From: a virus
Reading direction: 5' to 3' (one strand)
Virus record (IMG/VR): IMGVR_UViG_3300037502_000804
Location: 1 to 44,400 of that record
Length of the DNA stretch: 44,400 nucleotides
The translations under genes and the position numbers were made by a program. This document shows positions 807-43,242 of this stretch, piece by piece. The notes under the pieces were generated by a model, which did not search any database, was not told where the DNA came from, and worked only from the letters and a program-made list of their open reading frames with translations. Position 1 is the stretch's first letter; every line of letters begins with the position of its first letter.

Positions 807-821
807 TTTACTATTGAGAAT
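807..821 (+). promoter_or_regulatory. 15-bp motif TTTACTATTGAGAAT, site 1
   Basis: Exact match in the intergenic region. TTTACT-17 nt-TAAGAT (830-835) is a possible promoter for 861. Confidence 0.6.
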
Positions 822-860
822 TAATTAGGTAAGATTGTTTTTATTTAACGAGATTAATGC

Positions 861-1064
861 ATGAAATACACAGAAGACTTTCAAAAACTGGTTGATGAGA
901 AATTCAATTTAATTCTGGATGAGCTAAAGAAGTCCGTAGCAGATGCAATTCTCTATGGATCAACATTTAACACAATAACTTATGATGCAAATTTAGATGA
1001 AATAAAGTTTGCTGAAATTGACAAAAAATCAGTAGTTATTACTTACAAGGATAAATGGAAATGA
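861..1064 (+). CDS. Hypothetical early protein
   Basis: ORF of 67 aa that follows the motif promoter. Confidence 0.6.
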   Translation: MKYTEDFQKLVDEKFNLILDELKKSVADAILYGSTFNTITYDANLDEIKFAEIDKKSVVITYKDKWK

Positions 1065-1306
1065 ACCACGTAATTAATGACGGCTTTATGAATCCTGACC
1101 GTTTTGGCTATGCAGTAATTCCTTTTAAGATTAGCGATAAAGATCCTAGAAAGGATGTGCCAATATGGCGAATCAATCGAACCAATGCAAGGTCTATGGG
1201 CAAGAGATTCTATGAGCATACTAAGCCTTGCAAATGTGGTTCATTTCTAAGACGTGTTTATAACAATGAATGTTTTGATTGCTGGAAGTTGGAGAAGAAA
1301 AAATGA
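1055..1306 (+). CDS. Hypothetical protein with C-terminal Cys4 zinc-ribbon-like motif (CKC...CFDC)
   Basis: ORF overlaps both neighbours. Contains the cysteine pairs C-x-C and C-x2-C. Confidence 0.55.
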   Translation: MEMNHVINDGFMNPDRFGYAVIPFKISDKDPRKDVPIWRINRTNARSMGKRFYEHTKPCKCGSFLRRVYNNECFDCWKLEKKK

Positions 1307-1758
1307 ATGTACATTTCAGTAGTGCTAAGCAAACTTGGGAGACTCCACAGGATTTATTTGACAGATTAAATGATATTTTTAATTTTAATTTAGATGCATG
1401 TGCGGAGGATGATACAGCAAAAGTTAAAAAATATTTCACCATAGATGATAATGCATTAATTCAAGACTGGATTGGAAGTGTCTGGTGCAACCCTCCCTAT
1501 AACAGGGAGCAAATTAAATTTATAGAAAAAGCTTTGAATGAGAGTTTAAAACACAAATCCACTGTAGTTTTGTTAATACCAGCAAGGCCAGAAACAAAAG
1601 TGTGGCAAAACCTAATATTCAAAAATGCTTCGCAAATATGTTTTATAAAAGGAAGGCTTAAATTTGGCAACAGTAAGCATAATGCTCCATTTCCTAGCGC
1701 CTTGATTGTGTTTGGAAAGCATATTGATCTTAGTGAATTTGGTTTTTGTGTTTATTAA
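1303..1758 (+). CDS. dam: Phage Dam-type DNA N6-adenine methyltransferase
   Basis: NPPY catalytic motif (WCNPPYN). N-terminus FSSAKQTWETPQDLF is typical of the phage Dam family. Start trimmed to ATG 1303, an ATGA overlap with the upstream stop, with a GGAGAAG SD. Confidence 0.8.
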   Translation: MNVHFSSAKQTWETPQDLFDRLNDIFNFNLDACAEDDTAKVKKYFTIDDNALIQDWIGSVWCNPPYNREQIKFIEKALNESLKHKSTVVLLIPARPETKVWQNLIFKNASQICFIKGRLKFGNSKHNAPFPSALIVFGKHIDLSEFGFCVY

Positions 1759-1763
1759 TTATT

Positions 1764-1786
1764 AAGCCCTTCGGGGCTTTTTATTT
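1764..1786 (+). terminator. Rho-independent terminator
   Basis: aagccc-ttcg-gggctt stem-loop plus a T-run. Confidence 0.75.
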
Positions 1787-1842
1787 ACCCTTCATATTAG
1801 TTTTTATTATTAATTTTAATTTAATTGATAAAAATTATTTAT

Positions 1843-1871
1843 TTTACTTAATCAATAAAACATCACATAAT
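1843..1871 (+). promoter_or_regulatory. Sigma70-like promoter TTTACT-17 nt-CATAAT
   Basis: Hexamers with 17-nt spacing, upstream of AAGGAG and TTG 1902. Confidence 0.45.
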
Positions 1872-1901
1872 GACATCACACAAAGCAAAAGGAGATTAGA
1901 A

Positions 1902-2075
1902 TTGTCTAAGCCAGCAACTTCATTTTTATTTTTAGGCGAACTAAAACCGCTTGAAAGTACGATTATTGAAAACACCAAGAGAACAAAAGTCCGTGATGCT
2001 ATTCGCCGTTATGGGGATAGAAAGTTTAATACAACTCAAGTTGGGAACAATGTAATTGTAACTCGTATTCAGTGA
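1902..2075 (+). CDS. Small hypothetical protein (57 aa, TTG start)
   Basis: AAGGAG sits 7 nt before TTG 1902. The track ORF 1746-2075 would run through the terminator and promoter, so it was trimmed. Confidence 0.5.
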   Translation: MSKPATSFLFLGELKPLESTIIENTKRTKVRDAIRRYGDRKFNTTQVGNNVIVTRIQ

Positions 2076-2085
2076 GAATATAAAA

Positions 2086-2790: not shown

Positions 2791-2958
2791 ATGAAAATTG
2801 AATTTGTTTATATATCAATAATCATTGGTCTTGTTCTATTTGGAATCTTTACCACTCATCACAGCATAAATGATATTCGACTTGATAGGTGTAGAGGTAA
2901 GGATGCAGGAACTCCCGTAATGGTATACGGCAGGGCTTACACTTGCACTGGAAACTAA
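2791..2958 (+). CDS. Small membrane protein (55 aa), not in ORF track
   Basis: ATG directly abuts the upstream stop. N-terminal hydrophobic helix FVYISIIIGLVLFGIF. A terminator follows. Confidence 0.5.
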   Translation: MKIEFVYISIIIGLVLFGIFTTHHSINDIRLDRCRGKDAGTPVMVYGRAYTCTGN

Positions 2959-2964
2959 AAACAC

Positions 2965-2991
2965 ATACGCCCATCGTGGCGTATTTTTTTA
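2965..2991 (+). terminator. Rho-independent terminator
   Basis: atacgcc-catcgt-ggcgtat stem-loop plus ttttttt. Confidence 0.75.
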
Positions 2992-3094
2992 TCATAAAAA
3001 CTTTTGGTTATTAATTTACATATTAATCATTAAATTTATTTATTAGACATTATGTTATTTATATACAATAATGACGTAACAAAAGGAGAAACAC

Positions 3095-3277: not shown

Positions 3278-3288
3278 TTGGTGAAACT

Positions 3289-3501: not shown

Positions 3502-3520
3502 CTATTAGTACCTACTAACG

Positions 3521-3543: not shown

Positions 3544-3583
3544 TTGACAAAAAACTTGCTTTATATAAAATTTTATATAAAAT
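3544..3583 (+). promoter_or_regulatory. Promoter region (TTGACA 3544-3549; TTGCTT 3556-3561 with 16 nt to TAAAAT 3578-3583)
   Basis: Hexamers read from the sequence. Which -35/-10 pairing is used is uncertain. Confidence 0.35.
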
Positions 3584-3828: not shown

Positions 3829-4572
3829 ATGTTTTATTACAAAAAAAACATAGGTGACTATTACAAAAAAACTGGTCGGCTATCAATGCTTGAGCACGGA
3901 GCGTACACGCTTTTGATTGATGCGTGTTATGACCGTGAACGATTCCCTACGCTTGATGAGGCTTTGGACTGGACTTGGGCAAGAACTGACGCAGAAATAG
4001 AGGCAGTTAAGTTTATTTTAAGTAAGTTCTTTACTCTTGATGGTGATATTTACGTTCAGAAACGTATTCAAGATGAACTTGATAAATATCACGCTATGTC
4101 TGAACAAAACTCAAGAATAGCCAAAGAGCGTGAGGAAAAACGCAGGAATCGTAAACGAATCGAGCACGAAGCGTGCACAGATGGTGAACAAGTCGTAAAC
4201 GAAGCGCCACCTAACCAAGAACCAAGAACCAAGAACCAAGAACCAAATATATATACACAGGACAAGCCTGTGAAATTTGTGTTCAAAAAGAAATTGGAAG
4301 AATTTGGAGCTGATACTAAGTTGGTTTCAGACTGGCTTGTGGTTAGAAAAGGAAAGAATGCAGCAAACACAGAAACGGCTTTGAATGGTTTTATGTCTCA
4401 GGTCGAAAAGTCTGGTCTTGATGTAAACACTGTTTTAAAGATTTGCGTTGATAACTCTTGGAGTGGTTTTAAACAAAGCTGGTTAGCAAACATAAACATG
4501 AGTGACTACTTGGAACAACCAAAGCAAGAAGTTAAACAGCAAGCTAATGATTTTGATTGGGCGGATTTCTAA
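3829..4572 (+). CDS. Replication initiation/replisome organiser protein (DUF1376, YdaU-like)
   Basis: N-terminus YYKKNIGDYYKKTGRLSMLEHGAYTLLIDACY is typical of DUF1376. It lies directly upstream of the DnaB helicase gene. Confidence 0.65.
   Translation: MFYYKKNIGDYYKKTGRLSMLEHGAYTLLIDACYDRERFPTLDEALDWTWARTDAEIEAVKFILSKFFTLDGDIYVQKRIQDELDKYHAMSEQNSRIAKEREEKRRNRKRIEHEACTDGEQVVNEAPPNQEPRTKNQEPNIYTQDKPVKFVFKKKLEEFGADTKLVSDWLVVRKGKNAANTETALNGFMSQVEKSGLDVNTVLKICVDNSWSGFKQSWLANINMSDYLEQPKQEVKQQANDFDWADF
4213..4246 (+). repeat. Tandem heptamer (AACCAAG) x4 plus a partial copy, followed by AATATATATA
   Basis: Read directly from the sequence. It lies inside the replication protein gene and encodes NQEPRTKNQEP. 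Confidence 0.85.
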
Positions 4573-6439: not shown

Positions 6440-6468
6440 TTGCAATTATTCTCGATAGTGTTTACTAT
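6440..6468 (+). promoter_or_regulatory. Sigma70-like promoter TTGCAA-17 nt-TACTAT
   Basis: The -10 is part of the 15-bp motif. The spacer carries an inverted imperfect copy (ATTCTCGATAGTG, 6448-6460). Confidence 0.6.
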
Positions 6469-6475
6469 TGAGAAT
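6461..6475 (+). promoter_or_regulatory. 15-bp motif TTTACTATTGAGAAT, site 2 (paired with inverted copy 6448-6460)
   Basis: Exact match. Confidence 0.7.
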
Positions 6476-6498: not shown

Positions 6499-6711
6499 AT
6501 GGAATTGGTTTTAGTTGTTTCAGTAATTTTGTATTTCGCGCCTAGCATTATTGGTTTTATGCGTGGACATGCAAGCAAGTGGGCAATCTTTGCAATGAAT
6601 TTGTTTTTGGGTTGGTCTGTGATTTTCTGGTTCTGGAGCTTGTTTTGGTCTTTGTCAAATAAAGGCGGAAATCAAACAGTAATCGTAAATAACCAGATCA
6701 ACAACAAATGA
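6499..6711 (+). CDS. Superinfection immunity protein (Imm_superinfect family, two TM helices)
   Basis: YFAPSIIGFMRGHASKWAIFAMNLFLGWSVIFWFWSLFWS matches the family signature as recalled. Confidence 0.7.
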   Translation: MELVLVVSVILYFAPSIIGFMRGHASKWAIFAMNLFLGWSVIFWFWSLFWSLSNKGGNQTVIVNNQINNK

Positions 6712-8938: not shown

Positions 8939-9311
8939 ATTAGAATTGGCGCATGATTATGCGAAGATAATTTTAAGAAACTCAGTTGAGCGTGGATACA
9001 ATCTTGGCACTAGAACAGGCATAGAGAATATTGTTGATGTGGCGTTTGATTTATCAGAAGCAATGCTTTCAGAAAACGAAAAGCGGAAAGATAAGAGTCG
9101 GCCTGAAGTTTTGGAAGAGTGGCAACCTGATTGGAGTCAAGCGCCTAATGAATCAAATTATTGGGCTATGGATGGGGATGGTAGTTGTAATTGGTACAAA
9201 TATGAACCTGAAATATCTGGATATCATTGGGGTTTTGGGAGGGTGACATATAGTGCCCCTGATTTTGACTATCAAGGAGAGTGGATGGATTCATTGAGAA
9301 AACGTCCATGA
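8925..9311 (+). CDS. Hypothetical protein, C-terminal domain paralogous to 40521-40733
   Basis: Shared pattern DWS.aP.E.NyWA.D.dG ... YQG.W..SL..RP. Confidence 0.55.
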   Translation: MKMNKLELAHDYAKIILRNSVERGYNLGTRTGIENIVDVAFDLSEAMLSENEKRKDKSRPEVLEEWQPDWSQAPNESNYWAMDGDGSCNWYKYEPEISGYHWGFGRVTYSAPDFDYQGEWMDSLRKRP

Positions 9312-9670
9312 AGTTAATCCTTGATGTTGAGGTTCCACTAGTTGCTCCATCAGTAAATACCTACTGGCGGGCAAATGGAAATAGGAGATTTATCACGCCA
9401 AAAGGGATTAAGTTCACAAAAGATTTGGCACATTGGGTAAAGCCATTGATGAGTGACAAGCGGCTTAGATTGGATATTGTTTTTTGCTATCCAGATAAGC
9501 GTAAGCGCGATTGCGATAATTCACTTAAATCTGTTGTCGATAGCCTTGTTAAGAATGGATTGTGTCATGATGATGAACAATTTGATGAGTTGCATATCAA
9601 GCGTGGTCCAGTCATCAAAGGTGGTTTAATTAAAATAAAAGTTTTTGAGCTGGATGTTGCAATTAACTGA
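9308..9670 (+). CDS. rusA: RusA-family Holliday junction resolvase
   Basis: NTYWRANG...DCDNSLKSVVDSL...DDEQ acidic catalytic pattern. Start trimmed to ATG 9308 (ATGA overlap). Confidence 0.75.
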   Translation: MKLILDVEVPLVAPSVNTYWRANGNRRFITPKGIKFTKDLAHWVKPLMSDKRLRLDIVFCYPDKRKRDCDNSLKSVVDSLVKNGLCHDDEQFDELHIKRGPVIKGGLIKIKVFELDVAIN

Positions 9671-9707
9671 AAATTTGCTATAGTTAGCGAACTGAAAAAC
9701 TTTTCAT

Positions 9708-9741
9708 ATCCGTATCTAACCCCAAGATGCGGATTTTTTTT
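9708..9741 (+). terminator. Rho-independent terminator
   Basis: 10-bp stem atccgtatct/agatgcggat followed by tttttttt. Confidence 0.75.
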
Positions 9742-9752
9742 GCATAAAATTC

Positions 9753-9781
9753 TTGCATTAATTATAAATATAATTTACTAT
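9753..9781 (+). promoter_or_regulatory. Sigma70-like promoter TTGCAT-17 nt-TACTAT
   Basis: The -10 is embedded in motif site 3. Confidence 0.6.
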
Positions 9782-9788
9782 TGAGAAT
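9774..9788 (+). promoter_or_regulatory. 15-bp motif TTTACTATTGAGAAT, site 3
   Basis: Exact match. Confidence 0.7.
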
Positions 9789-9806
9789 ATAAAGAGGAGA
9801 GATAAA

Positions 9807-10046
9807 ATGATTCTAGTTAAAGCTTTATGGTTGGCAATTGTTGATGTGGCTAAGTTATTTAAACATGCGCCTAAATTGTTGGTTGAATTGTTTTGGGCTT
9901 TAGCTGGTGTTTTATCTCTAATCTTGAGCGTGGTTTTGTTTCCATTAATTGTGGTGCGTAAATACAAGGTATTGAAAAATGGATCACCAAAAAGAGTTAA
10001 GGGTAAATCTAAGGGTATTAAAGTACGCAGCAACAGATTTGCTTAG
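9807..10046 (+). CDS. Membrane protein with basic C-terminal tail
   Basis: GAGGAGA SD. Contains a hydrophobic helix and a KRVKGKSKGIKVRSNRF tail. Confidence 0.6.
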   Translation: MILVKALWLAIVDVAKLFKHAPKLLVELFWALAGVLSLILSVVLFPLIVVRKYKVLKNGSPKRVKGKSKGIKVRSNRFA

Positions 10047-10110
10047 AGGGTCAGTGTTGATTGTATATCACGCTGTAATGATCGTATTTAATTGGTTAAG
10101 GGGTAGGTAA

Positions 10111-10455
10111 ATGATGGATTTTGTAAAGGCGATTGAAAAAGGTATAAAGGCTGCCGAGGATAAAGAAGCCAATATGCAAGAAATTCGAGAAATTATTACT
10201 CAGGCAAATAAGGAAATATTTGAATTTTGTGGAATGATAAACGGATTTATTGAGTTAAAGGACGGTAAATTTATCTGCAATGATGTTATTCATAGCATTT
10301 CACACAATAGAAATTGTGGCTATCCATTAATTTTAACAACTTTTTCAAAGACATATGAAGTTGCAAATGCTGAAGAGTTTGTTGATTGTATTAAGTCAAT
10401 TTTGTCTTCTTCTGCATACGGAACAAAAATTAGGAGATTTAAAGGTGATCTATAA
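10111..10455 (+). CDS. Hypothetical protein
   Basis: ORF with a GGGGTAGG SD-like sequence. Confidence 0.6.
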   Translation: MMDFVKAIEKGIKAAEDKEANMQEIREIITQANKEIFEFCGMINGFIELKDGKFICNDVIHSISHNRNCGYPLILTTFSKTYEVANAEEFVDCIKSILSSSAYGTKIRRFKGDL

Positions 10456-10567
10456 ATTTTTAAAGCGCCTATTCTGCCGACATGAGTGGGAAATAGAAGA
10501 AAGTAATTTAACTGGCGATACTTATAAAGTTTGCCGTAAATGCTGGAAGGAGGTGGATTGTGAGTAA
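10445..10567 (+). CDS. Mini zinc-ribbon-like protein (40 aa, GTG start)
   Basis: AGGAGA sits 7 nt before GTG 10445. CRHEW...CRKCW motif. The track ORF 10355-10567 overlaps the upstream gene, so it was trimmed. Confidence 0.45.
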   Translation: MIYKFLKRLFCRHEWEIEESNLTGDTYKVCRKCWKEVDCE

Positions 10568-10772
10568 GTTTAATTCTATCAAAGTGCGGTTAAAGCTCTC
10601 TATCGGCTTTGCGGTTGGTAATCATGAATTAGATGTGTTGCTAAGTGAATACATCTCAGAGGAAGAATGGAATGCGTTAGGTTTTTTTGAAAAGCAAAGA
10701 TTTGTTGAAGAGGAGATCTTAAATGAATGGGCTAATGGATACATTGAAAAAAGCGCTGAGGTGTTGGAGTGA
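10560..10772 (+). CDS. Hypothetical acidic protein
   Basis: GGAGG SD before GTG 10560. Confidence 0.6.
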   Translation: MSKFNSIKVRLKLSIGFAVGNHELDVLLSEYISEEEWNALGFFEKQRFVEEEILNEWANGYIEKSAEVLE

Positions 10773-10987
10773 GTGAATTTAATGCAATTTATCGAAAAGT
10801 TTGCTTGGGTGAGAGATTTGATATAAGCGCATATAAGCAATGCGAGAAAATTTACAATCACCAACAGCAAAAGATTGATGATATTACGGGTCACATCAAG
10901 ACGTTAAAGGCTCTGCATAAAGAAGGAAATTTAACAATGGGCGATGTGATGATGTTTTTAAAAGGTGTAGAAGGGGTTTTGGAATGA
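10769..10987 (+). CDS. Hypothetical protein
   Basis: ORF with an overlapping start. Confidence 0.55.
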   Translation: MSEFNAIYRKVCLGERFDISAYKQCEKIYNHQQQKIDDITGHIKTLKALHKEGNLTMGDVMMFLKGVEGVLE

Positions 10988-11379
10988 TAGATTTGAATAA
11001 GTTAAGAAGTGAGTTTGAGGAACTTCCAGAGGTTAAGCAATGGATTGATAGATTAATCTACGGTGATAATTCTGAAGTTTATATATCGGTAGATGAAACA
11101 GAAGAAAATAATGCCATTGCTACATGGATTAATGGCGCATGGTTTGTTTGGAAACAAAAAGCCAAAGCTCAGGCGGTGCCAGAGAAAAAGATTTACTTAA
11201 CCTGTGAGCAATTATATGCAGCAGCAAACTTTGGTGCACCAAACAAGGATCCAGAACTTTTAGAAACTGAATTAACAATTGCTTGGTTTGATGAAGCTCA
11301 TAGTGGTAGTGGTTACTATGTTTATATAAGTGAGTATCCAGAAGAAGGCGCAATGAAGCTGGAAAGCAAGGATGGGTGA
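10984..11379 (+). CDS. Hypothetical protein
   Basis: ORF with an ATGA overlap. Confidence 0.6.
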   Translation: MIDLNKLRSEFEELPEVKQWIDRLIYGDNSEVYISVDETEENNAIATWINGAWFVWKQKAKAQAVPEKKIYLTCEQLYAAANFGAPNKDPELLETELTIAWFDEAHSGSGYYVYISEYPEEGAMKLESKDG

Positions 11380-11581
11380 GATGGAAAAAATATCCATAGA
11401 TCAAGAAATTGACGAAGCTATAGCCAATGGTGAAAGCTTTTATAAAATTAGAAGACATTTTGAAAAAGCTATTTTGGAAAGGGTTTTGATTAAGACGAGA
11501 GGAAATCAAACTGAGGCGGCTAAAATGCTTGGGATTAGTCGCACGGGGTTGGGTGGGATTTTGAAGAGGGTGAGTAGATGA
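11372..11581 (+). CDS. Fis-type HTH DNA-binding protein (candidate transcription regulator)
   Basis: FEKAILERVLIKTRGNQTEAAKMLGISRTGLGGILKR matches the Fis/NtrC C-terminal HTH pattern. Confidence 0.65.
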   Translation: MGEMEKISIDQEIDEAIANGESFYKIRRHFEKAILERVLIKTRGNQTEAAKMLGISRTGLGGILKRVSR

Positions 11582-11715
11582 TTATTTTTTTATGCATCTT
11601 ATTATTTGCTGTTATCGCAGGGTGGAAGTCAGATAGTTGGCATGGCTCACTATTGATGGGGTTTATAATTTTAGCTTTGTTGTTATCAATATTGCGGGTT
11701 GGAGGTTGGATATGA
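11578..11715 (+). CDS. Small two-TM membrane protein (45 aa), not in ORF track
   Basis: ATGA overlaps at both ends. Strongly hydrophobic. Confidence 0.45.
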   Translation: MIIFLCILLFAVIAGWKSDSWHGSLLMGFIILALLLSILRVGGWI

Positions 11716-11858
11716 CCATTGAAGAAATCATAAATCCAAACGATGATACAATTGTGTGTTGGTCTTGTGATGCAGACGTATTGATTAAAGAACTGAGTGC
11801 CAATGATGGGTTTTGTCCGTTTTGTGATCAGGAGATTGACCTAAGTGAATATTTATGA
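11712..11858 (+). CDS. Zinc-ribbon mini-protein (CWSC...CPFC)
   Basis: GGAGG sits 6 nt before ATG 11712. The track start 11637 overlaps the membrane ORF. Confidence 0.5.
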   Translation: MTIEEIINPNDDTIVCWSCDADVLIKELSANDGFCPFCDQEIDLSEYL

Positions 11859-12030
11859 AATCAGAGCTAATGCTCCGAAAGGGGCTACTCATTATAAGTT
11901 ATGGAAGTGGGGAGATGTTGATTATATTAGGATGCATACAGAGAATATATATGACTCTTGGCATGATAAAAAATGGGTTCCTTTGCCATATGCTTACTTC
12001 TCTTATCCATTATCAATTAAACCGCTATGA
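11845..12030 (+). CDS. NAPxGATHY...IKPL family small protein, paralog 1
   Basis: MNIYEIRANAPKGATHY...SIKPL. Confidence 0.6.
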   Translation: MNIYEIRANAPKGATHYKLWKWGDVDYIRMHTENIYDSWHDKKWVPLPYAYFSYPLSIKPL

Positions 12031-12039
12031 GGGTTGATT

Positions 12040-12204
12040 ATGAATATAGATGAGATTAGAAAAAATAGACCAGAGGGCGCAACGCATTATAGAGAATTTA
12101 CCGAACAGTATTTAATGAATACTCAAGGTAAGTGGTATATATTTAGGGAGGGTTATTGGGAATTAACCAAAAGACCATTTACGCATGAACTTAAACCGCT
12201 TTAA
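12040..12204 (+). CDS. NAPxGATHY...LKPL family small protein, paralog 2 (54 aa, not in ORF track)
   Basis: MNIDEIRKNRPEGATHY...HELKPL. GAGGG SD. The stop lies inside the terminator stem. Confidence 0.55.
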   Translation: MNIDEIRKNRPEGATHYREFTEQYLMNTQGKWYIFREGYWELTKRPFTHELKPL

Positions 12205-12220
12205 CGCGGTTTTTCTTTTT
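12194..12220 (+). terminator. Rho-independent terminator ending the early/middle region
   Basis: aaccgc-tttaac-gcggtt stem-loop plus tttttcttttt. Confidence 0.7.
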
Positions 12221-12221
12221 G

Positions 12222-12230
12222 TGGTATTAT
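12222..12230 (+). promoter_or_regulatory. Extended -10 promoter TGgTATTAT (no clear -35) for the packaging operon
   Basis: Read from the sequence, 28 nt upstream of ATG 12258. Confidence 0.45.
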
Positions 12231-12257
12231 TTTGGGAGGCTAAAGAGAGGTTAGGCT

Positions 12258-16281: not shown

Positions 16282-16320
16282 TAAATTGCCAATAGTGGCA
16301 CAACTTTGAGAGTTAAAATT

Positions 16321-16959: not shown

Positions 16960-16986
16960 TTAATAACCCATATCAAAACAACTGAT

Positions 16987-17014
16987 TTGTATTTTTAGTT
17001 TGGTTTGGTATTAT
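16987..17014 (+). promoter_or_regulatory. Promoter TTGTAT-16 nt-(TGg)TATTAT driving an ORF-free unit
   Basis: Extended -10 TGGTATTAT at 17006-17014. Confidence 0.45.
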
Positions 17015-17020
17015 GGTTTT

Positions 17021-17458
17021 ATTGATCGAATCTGTGGGCGACACAGTAAGAGCAGAGCAAAGACACAAGCGGGCTAATTAATGGTTTTCCATGTAGCTTG
17101 TGCCATGCAACTATTCGCACGTTGCCGATCAATGAATCCTCTTGGGTTAAAGGTTGTACCACTAAATGACTGCTAGGAAAGACTAGCAAACTTAGAGAAG
17201 TGAATAGCACACAACAGTAACACATAGTTAAAGGTTATCTAGGTGTTCTGTATAAACCTTGTTGTATCGTGTCAGTTCACTTCATCTAAGTTAAAATTCA
17301 GACGAAAGCACAAACCCGAAAGGGATATTACGTCTTGCGAAGTGAATCAATGAAAGTGCAATCACTAGCCCTTAAACACAAAAGGTTTTAGCGCATAAGG
17401 CAAAATGCAAAGTGTGTTAGTTAAGCCAATAGAGCCACCTTCGGGTGGTTTTATTTTA
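17021..17458 (+). ncRNA. Candidate structured non-coding RNA (about 440 nt, unknown class)
   Basis: It lies in the longest ORF-free stretch of the genome (16960-17537) and is bounded by a promoter and a terminator. Contains multiple hairpins including ccc-GAAA-ggg and tgctag-gaaaga-ctagca. Locally looks more GC-rich than its flanks. Confidence 0.4.
17434..17457 (+). terminator. Rho-independent terminator
   Basis: gccacc-ttcg-ggtggt stem-loop plus ttttatttt. Confidence 0.75.
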
Positions 17459-17474
17459 TCTAAACTATTTTAGA

Positions 17475-17489
17475 TTTACTATTGAGAAT
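17475..17489 (+). promoter_or_regulatory. 15-bp motif TTTACTATTGAGAAT, site 4
   Basis: Exact match. TTGAGA-17 nt-(TGg)TAAGAT (17502-17510) lies downstream. Confidence 0.65.
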
Positions 17490-17537
17490 TATATTCAAGA
17501 GTGGTAAGATTTAGTTATTCAGTAGAAGGGGTTTGAA

Positions 17538-17744
17538 ATGATTAGTTTTTTAGAATATGCAATACCTATTTTAATAATAATTTTTAGTCTTGTTTTTATT
17601 GTTTGGTTGTTTAGATATAAGCCAAGTGATTACTTAAATCAAAGATTAATGATTATTGGATTTCCAGTATTTTTAGTGTTTGCAATAATTTTTATTATTA
17701 TTGCTATATCAATGTTGAGTTTCGGTCATTGGATTGGTGGTTAA
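17538..17744 (+). CDS. Two-TM small membrane protein
   Basis: Hydrophobic ORF with a GAAGGGG SD-like sequence. Confidence 0.6.
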   Translation: MISFLEYAIPILIIIFSLVFIVWLFRYKPSDYLNQRLMIIGFPVFLVFAIIFIIIAISMLSFGHWIGG

Positions 17745-17745
17745 A

Positions 17746-17925
17746 ATGATTAACGTAGTTTATTTGGTTTTGGTTATTCATAGTGTGTATGGAAATAGCG
17801 AGTCAATTACTAACATAACCATTCCTCAAGCAAACATAGCTCAATGTGAAGTTAACAGAAAGAACTATAAAAACACTTATAATGTGAAAGCGTCTTATTG
17901 CATCGTAGGAGTAATGCCGAAATGA
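17746..17925 (+). CDS. Small protein with N-terminal signal-like segment
   Basis: Start trimmed to ATG 17746. MINVVYLVLVIHSVYG leader. Confidence 0.5.
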   Translation: MINVVYLVLVIHSVYGNSESITNITIPQANIAQCEVNRKNYKNTYNVKASYCIVGVMPK

Positions 17926-18095
17926 TTAAAGCGGAACTAGTTTCAGAATCAAAAGGAAGTGCTAGGAATTTATTGGATAAGGTGGTTTGCAGTAAAGAAA
18001 AAATACCACATACAGATTACATGTTTAATCCTAGTTACGTTGATAAAAAAAAGTTTCCAGAATTATCAATAGAGCAAAAGAGCTTGGACTTATAG
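17922..18095 (+). CDS. Small hypothetical protein
   Basis: AGGAG SD. ATGA overlap at 17922. Confidence 0.5.
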   Translation: MIKAELVSESKGSARNLLDKVVCSKEKIPHTDYMFNPSYVDKKKFPELSIEQKSLDL

Positions 18096-18145
18096 AGGAT
18101 GTAAAATGAAACCAGAACAGTTTATTTATGAGTACAGGGTGAATA

Positions 18146-18469
18146 ATGGATAAACCAATAACATTTAACGAATGGTTAGGCACACAAGGCAATATGGTTC
18201 TCCTTCATGCCAATTGTTGCCGTATTGCCTTTGAAGGTGGTCAGCAGTCACAGCAAGCGAAAGTAGAGGAGCTGCAAAAGCAATTAAATGAATACATATT
18301 TGTGGCTGAAACTATTGATGAAATGTATGTGAAAGAAGTCCAGAAAAGTGACGAGCTGCAAAAGCGGGTGGACAAAGCAATTAGATTTCTTGTGGAGGCA
18401 GAATTATATCAATCAGAGCCTAACATTGATTTAGCGGTTAAAGCGCTCAAAGGGGAATCTAATGATTAA
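18146..18469 (+). CDS. Hypothetical coiled-coil protein
   Basis: ORF of 107 aa. Confidence 0.6.
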   Translation: MDKPITFNEWLGTQGNMVLLHANCCRIAFEGGQQSQQAKVEELQKQLNEYIFVAETIDEMYVKEVQKSDELQKRVDKAIRFLVEAELYQSEPNIDLAVKALKGESND

Positions 18470-18551
18470 GCCTGAAGTTTATATGCTTCTTATTGTTTAC
18501 GCTGTAATATGTATTTTCTTTGGATATTGCTTAGGGGTTGTTAGTAAATGA
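18462..18551 (+). CDS. Micro membrane protein (29 aa), not in ORF track
   Basis: Overlapping start and stop. Hydrophobic. Confidence 0.3.
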   Translation: MIKPEVYMLLIVYAVICIFFGYCLGVVSK

Positions 18552-18649
18552 CCACATTCAAAGAATGCAACCACGAATATCAATATTGCTGGATTTATAA
18601 AGCTTACTTATGTATACACTGCGACAAGATGAGGGTTGAAGATGAACAT
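18548..18649 (+). CDS. Cys-rich micro-protein (33 aa), not in ORF track
   Basis: ATGA overlap. Cysteine pattern C...C...C..C. Confidence 0.3.
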
Positions 18650-18890
18650 TGAAGAGATTAAGGGAAATGCGCCTGATGGGGCAGAATTTTATTATATAGA
18701 TGATGGTATATTTTGCGGAGAGGTGTTCTACTTCAAGAATGGCGACTCGTGTTTTTTAGATATGTTTGACGAGAATACTAATACATGGATTAACGCCAGA
18801 ATTCCAAGAATGGATGTTCAGTTTAAAGCCAGTTACTTTGCAGATTGCACAATGTCAGTTGAGCATGATCACATTAAGCCCCTTAATTGA
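18642..18890 (+). CDS. NAPxGA...IKPL family small protein, paralog 3
   Basis: MNIEEIKGNAPDGAEFY...HIKPLN. Start trimmed from TTG 18636 to ATG 18642 (GAGGG SD). Confidence 0.6.
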   Translation: MNIEEIKGNAPDGAEFYYIDDGIFCGEVFYFKNGDSCFLDMFDENTNTWINARIPRMDVQFKASYFADCTMSVEHDHIKPLN

Positions 18891-18902
18891 GGGCTTTTTT
18901 TA
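18876..18902 (+). terminator. Rho-independent terminator overlapping the stop codon
   Basis: aagccc...gggctt stem-loop plus ttttttt. Confidence 0.7.
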
Positions 18903-18913
18903 TAACCATTACT

Positions 18914-18922
18914 TGCTATAAT
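18914..18922 (+). promoter_or_regulatory. Extended -10 promoter TGcTATAAT for the scaffold/capsid operon
   Basis: Read from the sequence, 28 nt before ATG 18950. Confidence 0.5.
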
Positions 18923-18949
18923 CAAGAAAAGTGATATAGGTGAGTAAAA

Positions 18950-22696: not shown

Positions 22697-22843
22697 ATGG
22701 AAAAAATAGTTGAAGCGCTTAAACTGCTTTTAGATGATTACGATGTTTATATGGCTGGTGGAAAATCTTTGTTTGATTGGTCGAATAGGGATCTCATCTT
22801 TAAAGATGGCTATGGTCTTGGCTCAGAAGGCTGGGATCTTTAG
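22697..22843 (+). CDS. Small hypothetical protein (48 aa), not in ORF track
   Basis: AAGAGG sits 7 nt before the ATG. The stop overlaps GTG 22843. Confidence 0.45.
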   Translation: MEKIVEALKLLLDDYDVYMAGGKSLFDWSNRDLIFKDGYGLGSEGWDL

Positions 22844-23280
22844 TGTCAATCAAACGCACAGGCTCACTAGACCAAGCATTAAACCGCTTGGTTTCTAGTA
22901 ATGATCAGTATGTAAAGGCTGGGGTAATGCCCGGATCAAAATATCCAGATGGCACCAGCGTTGCTACTGTGGCTTATAAGAACGAATATGGGTTTAAGAA
23001 TATTCCGAGTCGTCCATTTATAAGAACCACTGTAAGAGAGCAAAAAGCTGCTTGGGTGGAGCTAACCAAGAAAGGTATTAAGGCTGGGTATACATTAGAG
23101 CATACGCTTAATTTGGTTGGGTTGAGTATGCAGAATGAGATTCAATACTCTATTATGATATGGTCACAGCCTCCAAACGCACCATACACCATTAAAAAGA
23201 AAGGGCAAAATTCGCCGTTAAGGGATAGTTTGCTCATGCATGACAGTATTAAATACGAAGTTGTTGAGGGTAAATTATGA
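22843..23280 (+). CDS. HK97 gp10-like head-tail joining protein
   Basis: YGFKNIPSRPFIRTTV motif. Confidence 0.55.
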   Translation: MSIKRTGSLDQALNRLVSSNDQYVKAGVMPGSKYPDGTSVATVAYKNEYGFKNIPSRPFIRTTVREQKAAWVELTKKGIKAGYTLEHTLNLVGLSMQNEIQYSIMIWSQPPNAPYTIKKKGQNSPLRDSLLMHDSIKYEVVEGKL

Positions 23281-23474: not shown

Positions 23475-23503
23475 TTGCATTCTCAATAGTAAATAAATAT
23501 AAT
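23475..23503 (+). promoter_or_regulatory. Strong sigma70 promoter TTGCAT-17 nt-TATAAT (moron cassette 1)
   Basis: Consensus -10. The spacer contains the 15-bp motif in reverse orientation (23479-23493). The 32-bp core 23474-23505 is identical to 30661-30692. Confidence 0.7.
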
Positions 23504-23540
23504 GATTTTATAACAAGCAATAAAGCTTAAATGTAGGACG

Positions 23541-23759
23541 ATGAAAATGTTTACTCAAGAATTTTTAAACCTAGGCCGTATTGCAGCAGAAGCAGCAATC
23601 GAAACACTAATCGAAAAGGCTAAGAACGAAACTGGTAAGACTGTTAGCTTTACAGAAATGCTTGATTTAACTAGAACAGATGAGTCAGTATCTAAAATGT
23701 ACGAAGAACTTTTACTAAAAGGTATGCAATTTATGACACTTAACGGTGGTGCTCAATAA
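23541..23759 (+). CDS. Moron cassette 1 protein A (72 aa, unknown function)
   Basis: AGGA SD-like sequence. Has its own promoter. Confidence 0.6.
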   Translation: MKMFTQEFLNLGRIAAEAAIETLIEKAKNETGKTVSFTEMLDLTRTDESVSKMYEELLLKGMQFMTLNGGAQ

Positions 23760-23950
23760 TGGGGCCGCATCTTTGTATGGATTGGGTGAAAAAGTACGGC
23801 GGTAGAGAGTTTGATTACTTAACAAATTTAAGCGTAGTTGAACATGTTGCAGATAAAGCTAAGGAAATCGCAATTTCAGAAGAAGAAATAAAGCTTTGTG
23901 ATGCGGCAAAAGAAGCGGCAATAAAGCAAATACAGGAAATCCATAAATAA
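23759..23950 (+). CDS. Moron cassette 1 protein B (63 aa, unknown function)
   Basis: TAATG overlap with protein A. Confidence 0.55.
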   Translation: MGPHLCMDWVKKYGGREFDYLTNLSVVEHVADKAKEIAISEEEIKLCDAAKEAAIKQIQEIHK

Positions 23951-24011
23951 CCCGCCCAGCTCTGGCTTTTCTTATTTCAGTTAGCGTAAATATTTCAAAA
24001 ATTAAGCTATA

Positions 24012-24041
24012 CTAGCCTCATCAAACGATGGGGCTTTTTTA
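24012..24041 (+). terminator. Rho-independent terminator abutting ATG 24042
   Basis: agcctc-atcaaacgat-ggggct stem-loop plus tttttt. Confidence 0.55.
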
Positions 24042-26951: not shown

Positions 26952-26955
26952 CCAT

Positions 26956-26983
26956 AAGGGGAGAAATCCCCTTTCTATTTTTT
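26956..26983 (+). terminator. Rho-independent terminator/attenuator after the tube gene
   Basis: aagggga-GAAA-tcccctt stem-loop plus tctatttttt. Confidence 0.7.
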
Positions 26984-26996
26984 AGAGGCTAAAATC

Positions 26997-30661: not shown

Positions 30662-30690
30662 TTGCATTCTCAATAGTAAATAAATATAAT
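30662..30690 (+). promoter_or_regulatory. Strong sigma70 promoter TTGCAT-17 nt-TATAAT (moron cassette 2)
   Basis: Duplicate of the 23475 promoter. Reverse-oriented 15-bp motif at 30666-30680. Confidence 0.7.
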
Positions 30691-30728
30691 GAGTTCATAC
30701 CAAGCAATTAGCTAAAAGGAAATTCAAA

Positions 30729-30878
30729 ATGAAAGACAAAGTTATTAAATTATTAATCAAATGGGGCTATAACGAGGAAACTGTAAAATTAATGGTAGAA
30801 GCTAACTTTGATATTGCTATTAAGTCTTATCCTGATTCAAAACCCTCTTTTATTGCTGATGTGGTCTGCACCCTATGA
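30729..30878 (+). CDS. Moron cassette 2 protein A (49 aa), not in ORF track
   Basis: AAGGA SD. ATGA overlap downstream. Confidence 0.5.
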   Translation: MKDKVIKLLIKWGYNEETVKLMVEANFDIAIKSYPDSKPSFIADVVCTL

Positions 30879-31087
30879 TTATGGTGTGGGTTGATGCTTC
30901 CGAAATAAAGCATGGAGATACCGTTATATGTAAAAAAGGACATATAAAAACTGTTTCCAGAAAGGATATTAGCAACGGTTTTATGGGTTTGTGCATTTTT
31001 GGATACCCATATGGGAATCTTAAAGAAAAAATAGAGAAATGTTTATTTCCTGTTTGGTATCAAGGTGAGGTAATTAGATATGAATGA
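30875..31087 (+). CDS. Moron cassette 2 protein B (70 aa)
   Basis: ORF. Confidence 0.55.
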   Translation: MIMVWVDASEIKHGDTVICKKGHIKTVSRKDISNGFMGLCIFGYPYGNLKEKIEKCLFPVWYQGEVIRYE

Positions 31088-31262
31088 CATTCATTCAAAA
31101 GCGCCTAAAGGGGCTACACACTATTTTAAAAATGAATTCATTGTTTCTTATTTTTTTTATTCCAATGATGTTGAATTGTGGTTTGTTTGGGATAAGCATT
31201 TTGAATACTGGAGTTCAAAAATATTCATGGACCGCATTAAAAATTTAAAAAAATTAAATTAA
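31080..31262 (+). CDS. NAPxGATHY family small protein, paralog 4
   Basis: MNDIHSKAPKGATHY...NLKKLN. Confidence 0.55.
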   Translation: MNDIHSKAPKGATHYFKNEFIVSYFFYSNDVELWFVWDKHFEYWSSKIFMDRIKNLKKLN

Positions 31263-31271
31263 TGCTAAAAT

Positions 31272-31295
31272 AGCCTCCAATACGGAGGCTTTTTA
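31272..31295 (+). terminator. Rho-independent terminator; the 3' arm GGAGG doubles as SD for GTG 31298
   Basis: agcctcc-aatac-ggaggct stem-loop plus ttttatt. Confidence 0.75.
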
Positions 31296-31297
31296 TT

Positions 31298-40524: not shown

Positions 40525-40733
40525 TTTGGTCTTTCCTCTAGGCTTTCTCTCCAGCTTCCTTGATAGGCAGGCATCCAACCATTGTATGGAAAATACAGAA
40601 AATCCGAAGTGTGCATGAATTTCCCAAACTCCTTTTCTTCCGGCATCGAGCTATATCCAAATACCACGCCATTACTATCTGTTGCAATCCAATTAACTTC
40701 TTTCGGCACACTGGACCAATCATATTTACTCAT
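40521..40733 (-). CDS. Small protein paralogous to the C-terminus of 8925-9311
   Basis: YDWSSVPKEVNWIATDSNG...YQGSWRESLEERPK. Confidence 0.55.
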   Translation of the reverse strand: MSKYDWSSVPKEVNWIATDSNGVVFGYSSMPEEKEFGKFMHTSDFLYFPYNGWMPAYQGSWRESLEERPK

Positions 40734-41023
40734 CTCTTTAACTCCAAATATCGTTGCCCTCTATTACGCATCACTTCTAACGCGCCTTCACGTTTTAAAT
40801 TCTTGATAAATTCCACTCCATATTTAAGCCATTGCGTTAAAAACAATTCATATCGCTCTTTGCAATAGTCGTTAATTTCATAATGATCAGCATCCGAAAA
40901 ATAAATTTCAGCCACCTTTCCGTTTTTACGCATAACAATATTGCCTTTACGCTCGTTTAAGTTGTGGCCGCCTTTCTGCATCCAAACAACAAACATAAAG
41001 ACTAGTGACTCTTTTATTTTCAT
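40730..41023 (-). CDS. Hypothetical protein
   Basis: ORF. Confidence 0.55.
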   Translation of the reverse strand: MKIKESLVFMFVVWMQKGGHNLNERKGNIVMRKNGKVAEIYFSDADHYEINDYCKERYELFLTQWLKYGVEFIKNLKREGALEVMRNRGQRYLELKR

Positions 41024-41779
41024 TTATCCTCCAAAAACTAAAGTCTTGGCATACTCTCGAGCCATTTCGACTTTTAGTTTAATTAAGTCAATTTTCTTTT
41101 GATCATATTCAACCTTATACGATGAAATACGATCACTAGGATTCATTTCTAAAACATAATCAATATGCAAATATTCATCATCATATCGAGTTAAGCACTC
41201 TTTAGGTGTTGGCATTAGGATAAAATCAAGATAAGCCTCATTAATAATTTTCGGCTCGTAATCGTGATTCTCTCTTAATAGATTCATATATCCCAATTGT
41301 TGCCAATCATAACCAGCATCTAAAGCCTTACTCTCAATATCCTCTTTAAAATACTCCATAGTCCAATATGACCACGGACACTTTGTATCACGTATTGCTG
41401 TGTTAGTAATAATGTCTGGTTCGCCAGTAATCCAGTCATTAGTAAAGCGAATCGTATTTTTTTCAGCACTAATAAACTTCTGTTGCATCAAAAACAAGAT
41501 TGCGTCATCTTCAACTAAATTCCCTTTTCTTGTCTCTTTACTTCCAGTAAACTTGCTTGGAGCCTTATGTCTTAACTGCCTAACTTTTTCCTTGACCAAT
41601 GTTTTAGCAGTAGCCGATAAAGTTATATCCAAAAGATCATCTAAAATCTTTTGTTCTTCATCGGTACGTTTTTTCTTTGCCTTTATTGATTGAACTTCTT
41701 CTGTGAGAAATGCAGAGTCAATAGACTTTGCATTTCCCATTAGTCGATGTAGTTCAGAACATCGAAAAATTAGATTCAT
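41024..41779 (-). CDS. YqaJ/lambda-Exo-like PD-(D/E)XK exonuclease
   Basis: GEPDIITNTAIRDTKCP motif. Adjacent to recT. Confidence 0.6.
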   Translation of the reverse strand: MNLIFRCSELHRLMGNAKSIDSAFLTEEVQSIKAKKKRTDEEQKILDDLLDITLSATAKTLVKEKVRQLRHKAPSKFTGSKETRKGNLVEDDAILFLMQQKFISAEKNTIRFTNDWITGEPDIITNTAIRDTKCPWSYWTMEYFKEDIESKALDAGYDWQQLGYMNLLRENHDYEPKIINEAYLDFILMPTPKECLTRYDDEYLHIDYVLEMNPSDRISSYKVEYDQKKIDLIKLKVEMAREYAKTLVFGG

Positions 41780-42675
41780 AGCGCCTCAACTATTTTCTTT
41801 TGTTCTTCGCTTAATGCGTAAATATCTGGATTTAAAGCATGCTCTTTAGTTAAACTGCCAGCTTCAATAGCCGCCACGAATTGTGGGAATTGATCCTCAG
41901 AAATCAATCGAGCTAATGGCTTTTCACCCTCTTGATCATTATCAACATATGAAGCTTCGCCATCTTCATTAATCACAGCTTGATCAAATTCAATCGCTTG
42001 TTGAAGCTCAACCGACATAGGCGCATATTTTGAGATAAGCAACTTAATAACAGTCTTTTGACACATTGCATCCCAATTCTGATGCCATACAGAATAGCTT
42101 TGCCCTTTCGACTTTGCGGTCTTATACGTCTGACTATACTTGCTTGCATGCTGCTCAAGATCCTCATTAGTCATTGTTAAATGAGCTTCAAACCCTGTCA
42201 CAGTCTCAAGATAAGCCAGATACCCAATAACTTCGCCACTAACCTTTTGTGGGATGAATGAAGTTAAACGAGCTTTTACGCTTTCTTCTGTGTCAGTGTC
42301 ATAAACCGCAATTGAGGCAATCTTTTTAATCTGACCAGAGCGTTGTGCTAATTGCAAGTAGCCTTTCCACCCCATCTGAAATTGTGCTTCTTGATTGCCA
42401 GTTTGTCGATTTTTGAACGGAACAATATAAGCAAAACCAAGATTGTTATTTAGTGGCAAATTAAGCGCACAAGCCGTATAAACAGCGCCTATTACAGATT
42501 CAGGAGTTGATTGCGCCAATAACCCGTTTGAATTAATAACCTGCATTACAGACGTAATATAGCTATCAGATTTACGCCCTATCATTTCTTCAATGCGTTT
42601 CATCACCGATGGATTGCTAAGCGTTTGTTTAATCGCTAATGCATTTTGTTTTTGCTGCTGTGTTAGATTACTCAT
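41776..42675 (-). CDS. recT: RecT-family single-strand annealing protein
   Basis: N-terminal and central RecT-like sequence (LNLPLNNNLGFAYIVPF). Paired with the exonuclease gene. Confidence 0.75.
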   Translation of the reverse strand: MSNLTQQQKQNALAIKQTLSNPSVMKRIEEMIGRKSDSYITSVMQVINSNGLLAQSTPESVIGAVYTACALNLPLNNNLGFAYIVPFKNRQTGNQEAQFQMGWKGYLQLAQRSGQIKKIASIAVYDTDTEESVKARLTSFIPQKVSGEVIGYLAYLETVTGFEAHLTMTNEDLEQHASKYSQTYKTAKSKGQSYSVWHQNWDAMCQKTVIKLLISKYAPMSVELQQAIEFDQAVINEDGEASYVDNDQEGEKPLARLISEDQFPQFVAAIEAGSLTKEHALNPDIYALSEEQKKIVEAL

Positions 42676-42854
42676 TTAGAAACCTCCAATAATTTAAGTA
42701 ATGTTTCCTGTCTTTCCTGATGCTGAATCTCTCGATATTCATGCATACGTTTTCTGTATTCTTTCGAGTCAATTACGTTCATTTGATAAGCTGTTTCGAT
42801 TGACCAGAAGTAAGCGTCTGCACCATGTTCTTTTACGTCATCAAGCCAACTCAT
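42672..42854 (-). CDS. Hypothetical protein
   Basis: ORF with overlapping ends. Confidence 0.5.
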   Translation of the reverse strand: MSWLDDVKEHGADAYFWSIETAYQMNVIDSKEYRKRMHEYREIQHQERQETLLKLLEVSK

Positions 42855-43186
42855 TCCATTTTCTCCGAAATTTCATTTTCAATAACTTGAACAATGTTTG
42901 ATACTTCTTCGCTAGGTAAAACGTAGTCTTCTGTTTCACCATCTTCGTTAAAAACCTTAACGTCATTTACAGATTCAATTTCAACATCATTCCATGATTG
43001 GAATCCGTTGCCATCTTTAAAAAATCGGCCCTCAAACTCAACTTCTAAAATCAAATCACCAGACTTAATGGCAGCTACGTTATGCTCCATATCTAACGAT
43101 TCAATTTCGTATGGACCTGTAATAACTGGTTTACCCGAACATGCAACTAACGCAACAGAAGCAGCTAAAATCAATGCATTTTTCAT
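42851..43186 (-). CDS. Early lipoprotein (lipobox LVAC)
   Basis: MKNALILAASVALVAC|SGK signal peptidase II pattern. First gene after the promoter. Confidence 0.65.
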   Translation of the reverse strand: MKNALILAASVALVACSGKPVITGPYEIESLDMEHNVAAIKSGDLILEVEFEGRFFKDGNGFQSWNDVEIESVNDVKVFNEDGETEDYVLPSEEVSNIVQVIENEISEKME

Positions 43187-43213
43187 AATGTTTACCCCTT
43201 GTTTATATTCTCA

Positions 43214-43242
43214 ATAGTAAATGAATTATATGAATGTGTCAA
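43214..43242 (-). promoter_or_regulatory. Sigma70 promoter TTGACA-17 nt-TACTAT for the leftward recombination operon
   Basis: Consensus -35. The -10 is embedded in 15-bp motif site 7 (43207-43221, minus orientation). Confidence 0.7.

Follow-up and report, generated by a model that had tools for sequence, protein, structure and literature searches.

A recurrent 15-bp element in the promoters of an Obolenskvirus genome and its probable role as the operator of a phage-encoded repressor

The virus record IMGVR_UViG_3300037502_000804, analyzed here over 44,400 nt (the window), carries seven exact copies of a 15-bp motif, TTTACTATTGAGAAT, each overlapping a predicted sigma-70 promoter. We propose that the motif is probably an operator in the promoters of one co-regulated set of genes, and that it is bound by a phage-encoded protein that represses them, the likeliest candidate being the product of a helix-turn-helix (HTH) gene designated REG.

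Megablast (~91% identity over approximately two-thirds of the length) placed the window in the genus Obolenskvirus, which comprises AP22-, AbP2-, and AB_SZL3-like Acinetobacter myophages of ~45 kb, in agreement with a preliminary description of the sequence that had called it an Acinetobacter myophage. Positions 1-127 are identical to 44274-44400, and the window is therefore a complete, circularly permuted genome. We compared it with eight relatives (AB_SZL3, AP22, AbP2, Ab69, IME284, XC1, A72, and L127, the last being a 20.9-kb piece of a Logan contig), reading each of the nine genomes in full or in part, and with the outgroups phiAC-1 (A. soli) and Acjo_20 (= L137; A. johnsonii). Promoters were called by consensus matching to sigma-70 hexamers, and hexamers were verified base by base. 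The Obolenskvirus phages considered here are virulent and have no integrase. Repressor- and antirepressor-like genes have been noted in Obolenskvirus, and a temperate ancestry is likely (PMC10888812).

The 15-bp motif and its positions in promoters

The motif was located on the plus strand at 807, 6461, 9774, and 17475 and on the minus strand at 23479, 30666, and 43207, as the preliminary description had reported. Base composition predicts ~0.0005 exact copies, and none occurred in 100 dinucleotide-preserving shuffles of the window. All seven copies were confirmed to be intergenic, in a genome of which 6% is intergenic (p ~3e-9), and the motif was by far the most repeated 11- to 13-mer in the window genome. 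Likeness among the seven non-orthologous copies ended sharply at the edge of the 15-mer, beyond which only an A at position -1 (six of seven copies) and class-specific extensions were shared. As had been stated, the motif is not palindromic: it has no dyad symmetry other than ATT..AAT and does not resemble a lambda-type dimer site. An Rfam search and a tRNA scan of the window returned no matches.

Allowing up to three mismatches revealed four additional sites, two of which were in coding sequence, in line with chance. The other two, at 250-264 and 277-291, lay in the 101-bp gap between divergent regulator genes, and two such sites within 100 bp far exceed chance expectation. Degenerate copies had earlier been placed at 257-264 and 281-290; the sites are present, but their true extents are the longer ones given here (minus strand, three mismatches each). 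A third supposed copy, at 16288-16299, was rejected as a chance occurrence, being a 7-nt core within a small hairpin that does not stand out from the ~25 chance ACTATTG cores. An imperfect inverted partner (ATTCTCGATAGTG) is present at 6448-6460, as described, but is not part of the element: it was perfect in AbP2 and SZL3 and degenerate or absent elsewhere, and its interpretation as a sign of a dimeric operator was rejected.

All seven copies overlapped a pair of hexamers at 17-nt spacing (five strong and two moderate pairs), in four registers, designated A to D. The copies and the units they are predicted to drive are as follows.

807-821, plus strand: copy 1, register C; -35 TTTACT (807-812), -10 TAAGAT (830-835); after a hairpin at 771-789; putatively drives 861-1064 and subsequent genes.
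6440-6475 (motif 6461-6475), plus strand: copy 2, register A; -35 TTGCAA (6440-6445), -10 TACTAT (6463-6468); putatively drives a superinfection-immunity gene (6499-6711).
9753-9788 (motif 9774-9788), plus strand: copy 3, register A; -35 TTGCAT (9753-9758), -10 TACTAT (9776-9781); after a terminator at 9708-9734; putatively drives a small-ORF operon (9807-12204) that includes the Fis-like gene.
17475-17510 (motif 17475-17489), plus strand: copy 4, register D; -35 TTGAGA (17482-17487), extended -10 TGGTAAGAT (17502-17510); after a hairpin at 17435-17448; putatively drives the island 17538-18890, with a terminator at 18880-18893.
23475-23503 (motif 23479-23493, inverted), promoter on the plus strand: copy 5, register B; -35 TTGCAT (23475-23480), -10 TATAAT (23498-23503); putatively drives the island 23541-23950, with a hairpin terminator just before 24042.
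30662-30690 (motif 30666-30680, inverted), promoter on the plus strand: copy 6, register B; -35 TTGCAT (30662-30667), -10 TATAAT (30685-30690); putatively drives the island 30729-31262, with a terminator in 31263-31297.
43207-43242 (motif 43207-43221), minus strand: copy 7, register A; -35 TTGACA (43237-43242), -10 TACTAT (43214-43219); after a terminator at 43259-43274; the predicted unit is a leftward operon from 43186 to 39836 (lipoprotein-like gene, RecT, exonuclease, and MazG-like gene).

In register A (6461, 9774, and 43207), the TACTAT of the motif serves as the -10, 17 nt from TTGCAA, TTGCAT, or TTGACA, and the motif spans approximately -14 to +1. These three copies also share a downstream ATAAA, and their common 20-bp form, TTTACTATTGAGAATATAAA, includes the likely start. 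In register B (23479 and 30666), the inverted motif fills the spacer of a TTGCAT-17-TATAAT promoter and contributes the last two bases of the -35; these promoters agree with the consensus at 11 of 12 positions. Both arrangements and the 20-bp extension had been recognized in the preliminary description and were reproduced base by base. No -35 lies 17 nt from the TACTAT of copies 807 and 17475, where a -35-like hexamer comes from the motif itself. In register C (807), this is TTTACT (four of six positions matching), with TAAGAT 17 nt downstream, and in register D (17475) it is TTGAGA (five of six), with the extended -10 at the same distance.

Across the registers, the motif was placed at -14/+1, -31/-17, -35/-21, and -42/-28, in both orientations. 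Two of the seven copies were inverted relative to their downstream genes, and the 23479-type copy was inverted in relatives as well; reading the inverted copies as antisense promoters was rejected, as no conserved hexamers supported it. A terminator-type hairpin stood just upstream of copies 1, 3, 4, and 7. The motif was missing from other good promoters of the window (3044-3072 and 3544-3571, the latter TTGACA-16-TAAAAT) and is thus not a general promoter feature. Separately, TGAGAATATAAA, which matches the 3' portion of the 20-bp form seen in register A, was found at 2073-2084, directly before the start codon of an anti-repressor (Rha/KilAC) gene (2086-2790). It lacks the 5' half of the motif and may be what is left of a motif promoter since lost.

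Conservation of the motif and the cassettes around it

Among the eight relatives, orthologous promoters carried another 41 exact copies; the sole variant copy, in A72, differed at one base (TTTACTATCGAGAAT). Across the nine genomes, 48 of 49 dispersed copies were therefore exact (the divergent regulator region being counted separately), and no decayed copies were found elsewhere in the eight relatives. Conservation at orthologous promoters, which had been proposed as a check, was thus borne out. Flanking sequence diverged immediately beyond the motif: the spacers, the -35 boxes, and the genes downstream all varied while the motif remained exact. The spacer of the 43207 promoter varied among relatives, and that of the 6461 promoter was wholly different in L127, where the inverted half-copy was gone and the motif exact. 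The upstream half of the 807 site was altered in IME284, L127, and A72. In register C, a -10-like hexamer was kept 17 nt after TTTACT despite three different flanks (TAAGAT in the window, TAGGAT in L127, and TAATAT in A72), and in register D, TAAGAT or TATGAT was kept at the -10 position. In L127, which has the most divergent REG found (41% identity) and replication genes of a different kind, the four expected motif copies were nonetheless all exact.

These data bear on whether the 15-mer is simply a sigma-70 promoter core, consisting of the -10 TACTAT, discriminator, and start, which was copied between promoters and has no dedicated protein. The register A trio is what such a core would look like, with TACTAT 17 nt from a good -35 and 20 shared bases including the likely start. 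At the other four sites, however, TACTAT is not the -10, since two copies are inverted in the spacer and two supply the -35. Moreover, polymerase does not need all 15 bases, which are nevertheless nearly invariant, while the -35s vary among TTGCAA, TTGCAT, and TTGACA. Recognition by RNA polymerase alone is insufficient to explain four registers and both orientations, and we consider this explanation very unlikely. The motif instead has the general features of an operator, overlapping the -35, spacer, or -10/+1 of a recognizable promoter and being conserved beyond the needs of polymerase. The earlier suggestion of a protein operator rather than a mere -10 box is accordingly strengthened by the number of exact copies and by the four registers.

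An unlikely alternative is that the motif acts positively, either as an activator or sigma-appropriation box resembling that of T4 MotA or as a promoter for an RNA polymerase that the phage encodes or modifies; in either case it would mark a class of middle genes. One shared box per temporal class is typical of such systems, and the promoters at 807 and 17475, which follow terminators, are weak by sigma-70 criteria and could need help. A positive element would nonetheless be expected to keep a fixed register and orientation, whereas four registers and two inverted copies were observed, and the register B promoters, at 11 of 12 consensus positions, need no activator. The only RNA polymerase label in the relatives ("putative RNA polymerase" in XC1 and Ab69) falls at the position of window 22843-23280, which corresponds to the AbP2 tail-completion/neck protein. 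No sigma factor was annotated in any relative, and no credible polymerase or sigma factor was found among the relatives' annotations, a survey that did not extend to every window protein. It has also been stated that neither a sigma factor nor an RNA polymerase is encoded (PMC12859838). Of the three roles first suggested for the binding protein (repressor, activator, or host-takeover factor), repressor is retained, whereas activator is disfavored because the near-consensus TTGCAT-17-TATAAT promoters require none. An invariant sequence in a variable register fits a repressor operator; a bare -10 box, a promoter for a phage polymerase, or an activator box would not be expected to show this combination.

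The distribution of the motif was narrow. The distant relatives phiAC-1 and Acjo_20 contained no dispersed or repeated motif. An IMG/VR scan for the 15-mer found it on at least 119 stretches; among the matches listed, more than one copy per contig occurred only on Obolenskvirus contigs, the flanks of the 130 classified copies were unrelated in 114 cases and of Obolenskvirus type in 16, and no wider distribution of the motif emerged. The 20-bp form gave seven scattered, unrelated chance matches in a set of one genome for each of 185,579 species. None of these was in Acinetobacter, which argues against the motif being the site of a host DNA-binding protein exploited by the phage. The motif-bearing relatives examined that have a recorded host do infect the A. 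baumannii–pittii–nosocomialis group, and phiAC-1 and Acjo_20, from A. soli and A. johnsonii, lack the motif. Related sites nonetheless occur in the phage's own regulator promoters, and the layout travels with the phage regulator genes; we regard a host protein as highly improbable. Full-text literature searches found neither a description of the motif nor promoter or transcript studies of Obolenskvirus, consistent with the earlier remark that it was not recognized as a described element. The promoter information located consisted of BPROM sigma-70 predictions only, in one paper (PMC12859838).

In the structural region, each of the three copies stands at the start of a unit in which small ORFs lie between a promoter and a terminator (17475-18893, 23475-24041, and 30662-31297). 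These units are inserted between conserved genes with junctions at the promoter, as in morons and promoter-early stem-loop (PeSL) units. The island ORFs were absent from most relatives, and the 30662-31297 cassette is an insertion specific to the window genome. Four of the seven copies are likewise followed directly by genes specific to it (861-1064, 17538-17744, 23541-23950, and 30729-31087). Homology with six relatives ended within 60 bp of copies in 26 cases, against 6 expected, although these events are not independent. Some ends were exact: homology to relatives stopped at 23503, the end of a -10, and homology to five relatives at 30662, the start of a -35.

The operator-bearing promoter, by analogy with morons and T4-type PeSL, thus appears to travel with accessory-gene cassettes. 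An excess of breakpoints, some exactly at promoter edges, and genome-specific genes downstream would also be expected if the motif were a recombination linker at the edges of mobile promoter–gene–terminator cassettes, comparable to T4-type PeSL or lambdoid boundary sequences and kept identical by spread and gene conversion; these phages do encode RecT or Erf recombinases. Fifteen bases are, however, very short for recombinase-mediated exchange, gene conversion would homogenize flanks although similarity stops at the motif edges, and the copies before conserved genes (6461, 9774, and 43207) are equally invariant. A linker function is therefore improbable, and linkage to the junctions is better seen as a side effect of a shared regulatory cassette than as the reason it exists. 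We regard cassette travel as a consequence, not a cause, of a shared regulatory plug.

The divergent regulator locus and candidate binding proteins

The two three-mismatch sites, O1 and O2, lie between the divergent genes for REG and a Cro-like protein, as in the lambda arrangement of multiple sites between divergent regulators. The elements of this locus and the third candidate binder are as follows.

43734-44400, continuing across the junction at 228-128, minus strand: REG, 255 aa, phrog_14474.
250-264, minus strand: O1, TTTACTATAGTGATT, three mismatches to the motif; covers the -10 of P_REG.
277-291, minus strand: O2, TTAACTATTGCAAAT, three mismatches to the motif; covers the common -35.
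284-257, minus strand: P_REG, TTGCAA (284-279)-16-TACTAT (262-257), checked base by base.
279-307, plus strand: P_cro, TTGCAA (279-284)-17-TACAAT (302-307), checked base by base.
330-755, plus strand: Cro-like gene, encoding 141 aa; the HTH domain at the C terminus corresponds to the 63-64 aa proteins found in IME284, L127, A72, and Acjo_20.
11372-11581, plus strand: Fis-like gene, Fis-family HTH_8, 69 aa; downstream of the motif promoter at 9774.

P_REG and P_cro (region 250-307) share one palindromic -35. The O sites hold motif bases that no promoter hexamer needs and are therefore true relatives of the 15-mer; their presence at this locus points to one of its proteins as the binder. In IME284, both O sites read TTTACTATTGCAAA(T/C) and form direct repeats 28 bp apart, with 12/15 and 13/15 matches to the dispersed motif. 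Acjo_20 keeps the O-site layout with altered sites (TACCATTGCAGAT and CTATTGCAAAC) and has no dispersed motif, which suggests that it was in Obolenskvirus that the operator spread to further promoters. Acjo_20 also retains, at 9237-10080, a Cro-like gene and a REG-like gene that lacks the N-terminal domain and has the same membrane anchor; in the promoter of the REG-like gene, two sites in direct repeat cover the -35 and the -10.

REG corresponds to the HTH gene earlier described as wrapping from 43734; we confirmed that it runs from 228 to 128 and then from 44400 to 43734. The 127-bp end identity that splits it is the assembly overlap of a circular or terminally redundant genome. From its N terminus, REG consists of a variable alpha/beta domain, an XRE-type HTH (residues ~64-128), and a single long helix (136-254), with a hydrophobic anchor (233-250) at the C-terminal end. 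The N-terminal domain is swappable, with three unrelated types among five genomes. The HTH was near-invariant in 62 homologues down to 41% overall identity, while the rest diverged or was swapped. An AlphaFold model (mean pLDDT 82.5) matched the folds of SinR, HipB, C-proteins, and CapH, all generic XRE domains, and comparison with Protein Data Bank sequences gave weak HTH matches only. Homologues occurred almost exclusively on phage-sized contigs and in named Acinetobacter phages; the one-genome-per-species set contained no REG relatives, and no prophage context was found. The near-invariant HTH makes REG the best candidate binder.

The recognition helix of the Cro-like protein, by comparison, differs between the window type, IME284, and L127/A72, while the 15-mer is invariant throughout, which makes this protein a weaker candidate for the dispersed sites. 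The Cro-like protein may instead read O1 and O2, which vary with it. The Fis-like protein aligns with Fis residues 53-94, and its HTH is invariant. Phyletic pattern was not decisive in separating it from REG, as both HTHs are invariant and each protein was found in 78 phage records, at least 26 of which were shared, this being the overlap of two spread-sampled listings. Covariation between regulator and motif was suggestive only: the REG of L127 has the same HTH and the same motif, and Acjo_20 has a changed HTH, changed O sites, and no dispersed motif. As a rough division, we give REG close to an even chance of being the binder, and we consider the Cro-like protein, and likewise some other or host protein, possible but unlikely, and the Fis-like protein slightly less likely than either.

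The proposed repressor circuit and comparison with known systems

The registers have nothing in common other than overlap with the polymerase footprint, which is the requirement for steric repression, and it is on this basis that we read the motif as a repressor operator. The co-regulated set would consist of four units from the early, recombination, and accessory region together with the three islands inserted among the structural genes. The asymmetric 15-mer would be bound by a DNA-binding protein of the phage, and as the site always lies over the -35, spacer, or -10/+1, binding would occlude host RNA polymerase and shut the motif promoters off together. The phage would re-use parts of the operator (TTTACT, TACTAT, and TTGAGA) as hexamers because the operator must lie there anyway. 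Such a circuit could provide early shut-off or an immunity-like function inherited from a temperate ancestor, with the weaker sites O1 and O2 in the divergent REG and Cro-like promoters allowing autoregulation. REG, with its XRE-HTH, coiled coil, and membrane anchor, would be the likeliest binder, and the Cro-like protein possibly acts at the same sites, as do lambda CI and Cro. A more speculative form of this model, to which we give little credence, is that REG is a tail-anchored inner-membrane protein that clamps all early and moron promoters at the membrane via the 15-bp site. It would then be a membrane-tethered global repressor, a stoperator-like immunity surviving in a strictly lytic Gram-negative phage, with the swappable N-terminal domain as sensor or effector.

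Several points weigh against the repressor-operator interpretation. The literature searched held no transcription start site or binding data for any Obolenskvirus, and two of the promoters, those at 807 and 17475, match the consensus only moderately. REG has a membrane anchor, and RodZ, a membrane XRE-HTH protein, uses its HTH for protein contacts rather than for DNA. The motif has no dyad, whereas HTH proteins of the XRE and Fis types typically act as dimers on dyad-symmetric sites. O1 and O2 vary among genomes although the REG HTH does not. Finally, the motif is found in the same clade as both REG and the Fis-like protein, so phyletic pattern singles out no binder.

Among described systems, the closest is that of the Cluster A mycobacteriophages, an operator/stoperator network in which a monomeric two-domain repressor (L5 gp71 or the TipsytheTRex repressor) recognizes more than 20 dispersed asymmetric 13-mers (PMC9283540). 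Most L5 stoperators lie inside transcription units, block elongation, and act in one orientation only (PMC9283540). The two systems share a short, asymmetric, near-invariant site dispersed genome-wide in intergenic gaps, including those of the structural region, with promoter copies overlapping core elements and one phage repressor thought to serve all. They differ in that the Obolenskvirus sites number only seven to nine and every copy is on a promoter, without the placement typical of elongation blocks; two copies are inverted, so that orientation is not tied to transcription. The phages here are also virulent and without integrase, and no repressor with an L5-type HTH and stoperator domain was found: the model of REG, the one protein modeled, showed only an XRE/SinR-type HTH and one long helix.

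The lambda OL/OR operators resemble the present sites in lying over the -35 and -10 of early promoters, in having overlapping divergent regulator promoters with related sites, and in that two regulators may share sites. In lambda, the operators are pseudo-palindromes of 17 bp that occur in groups of three at two loci, whereas the motif is asymmetric, present once per promoter at seven loci, and far more uniform. In the PeSL of T4-type phages and in lambdoid morons, a stem-loop terminator and a conserved promoter flank variable small ORFs, and the promoter is a generic early-promoter consensus. The three islands within late operons, with their coinciding mosaic junctions, conform to this layout; the conserved unit here, however, is a distinct 15-mer occupying varied promoter parts. 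The T4 MotA box activates from a fixed position in which it replaces the -35. It likewise marks a whole promoter class with one short asymmetric sequence, but the motif lacks a fixed register and stands in promoters already matching the consensus. On present sequence comparisons, we file the motif as a putative dispersed asymmetric phage operator, set apart from that of L5 by promoter-only placement, free orientation, and unrelated candidate proteins.

Obolenskvirus phages are among the most used therapy candidates against multidrug-resistant Acinetobacter baumannii, and their expression programme is unstudied. The motif would give a handle on this programme, offering seven predicted starts, one candidate regulator-operator pair, and a simple means of timing or silencing genes inserted into engineered phages. 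It also marks the accessory islands of the structural region as putatively early-class, and thus as good places for host-takeover or anti-defence functions. If REG does bind the motif, this would be an unusual mode of phage transcription control.

Three further features of the window were noted. Extended -10 sequences resembling TGnTAnAAT (TGGTATTAT, TGCTATAAT, GGCTAAAAT, and TGCTAAAAT) occur without a -35 in four gaps before structural blocks (12205-12257, 18891-18949, 26952-26996, and 31263-31297), and may be the signature of a late promoter class. Within the replication-initiator gene (O-like or primosomal; 3829-4572), the heptamer AACCAAG is repeated head to tail approximately five times at 4213-4247, resembling the placement of origin iterons within an initiator gene that is seen in lambda. 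A 515-bp region at 16960-17474, directly preceding the 17475 promoter, has no credible ORF and no Rfam match even at E<=1. Its blocks at ~16962-17014, 17021-17047, and 17107-17133 were 94-100% identical in all relatives including phiAC-1, the structural region of which otherwise shows ~76% nucleotide identity to the window over only a third of its length. As RNA, 17020-17450 gave a fold z-score of -3.6 against shuffles, and 16960-17474 may represent a conserved structured RNA or a cis-acting DNA element.

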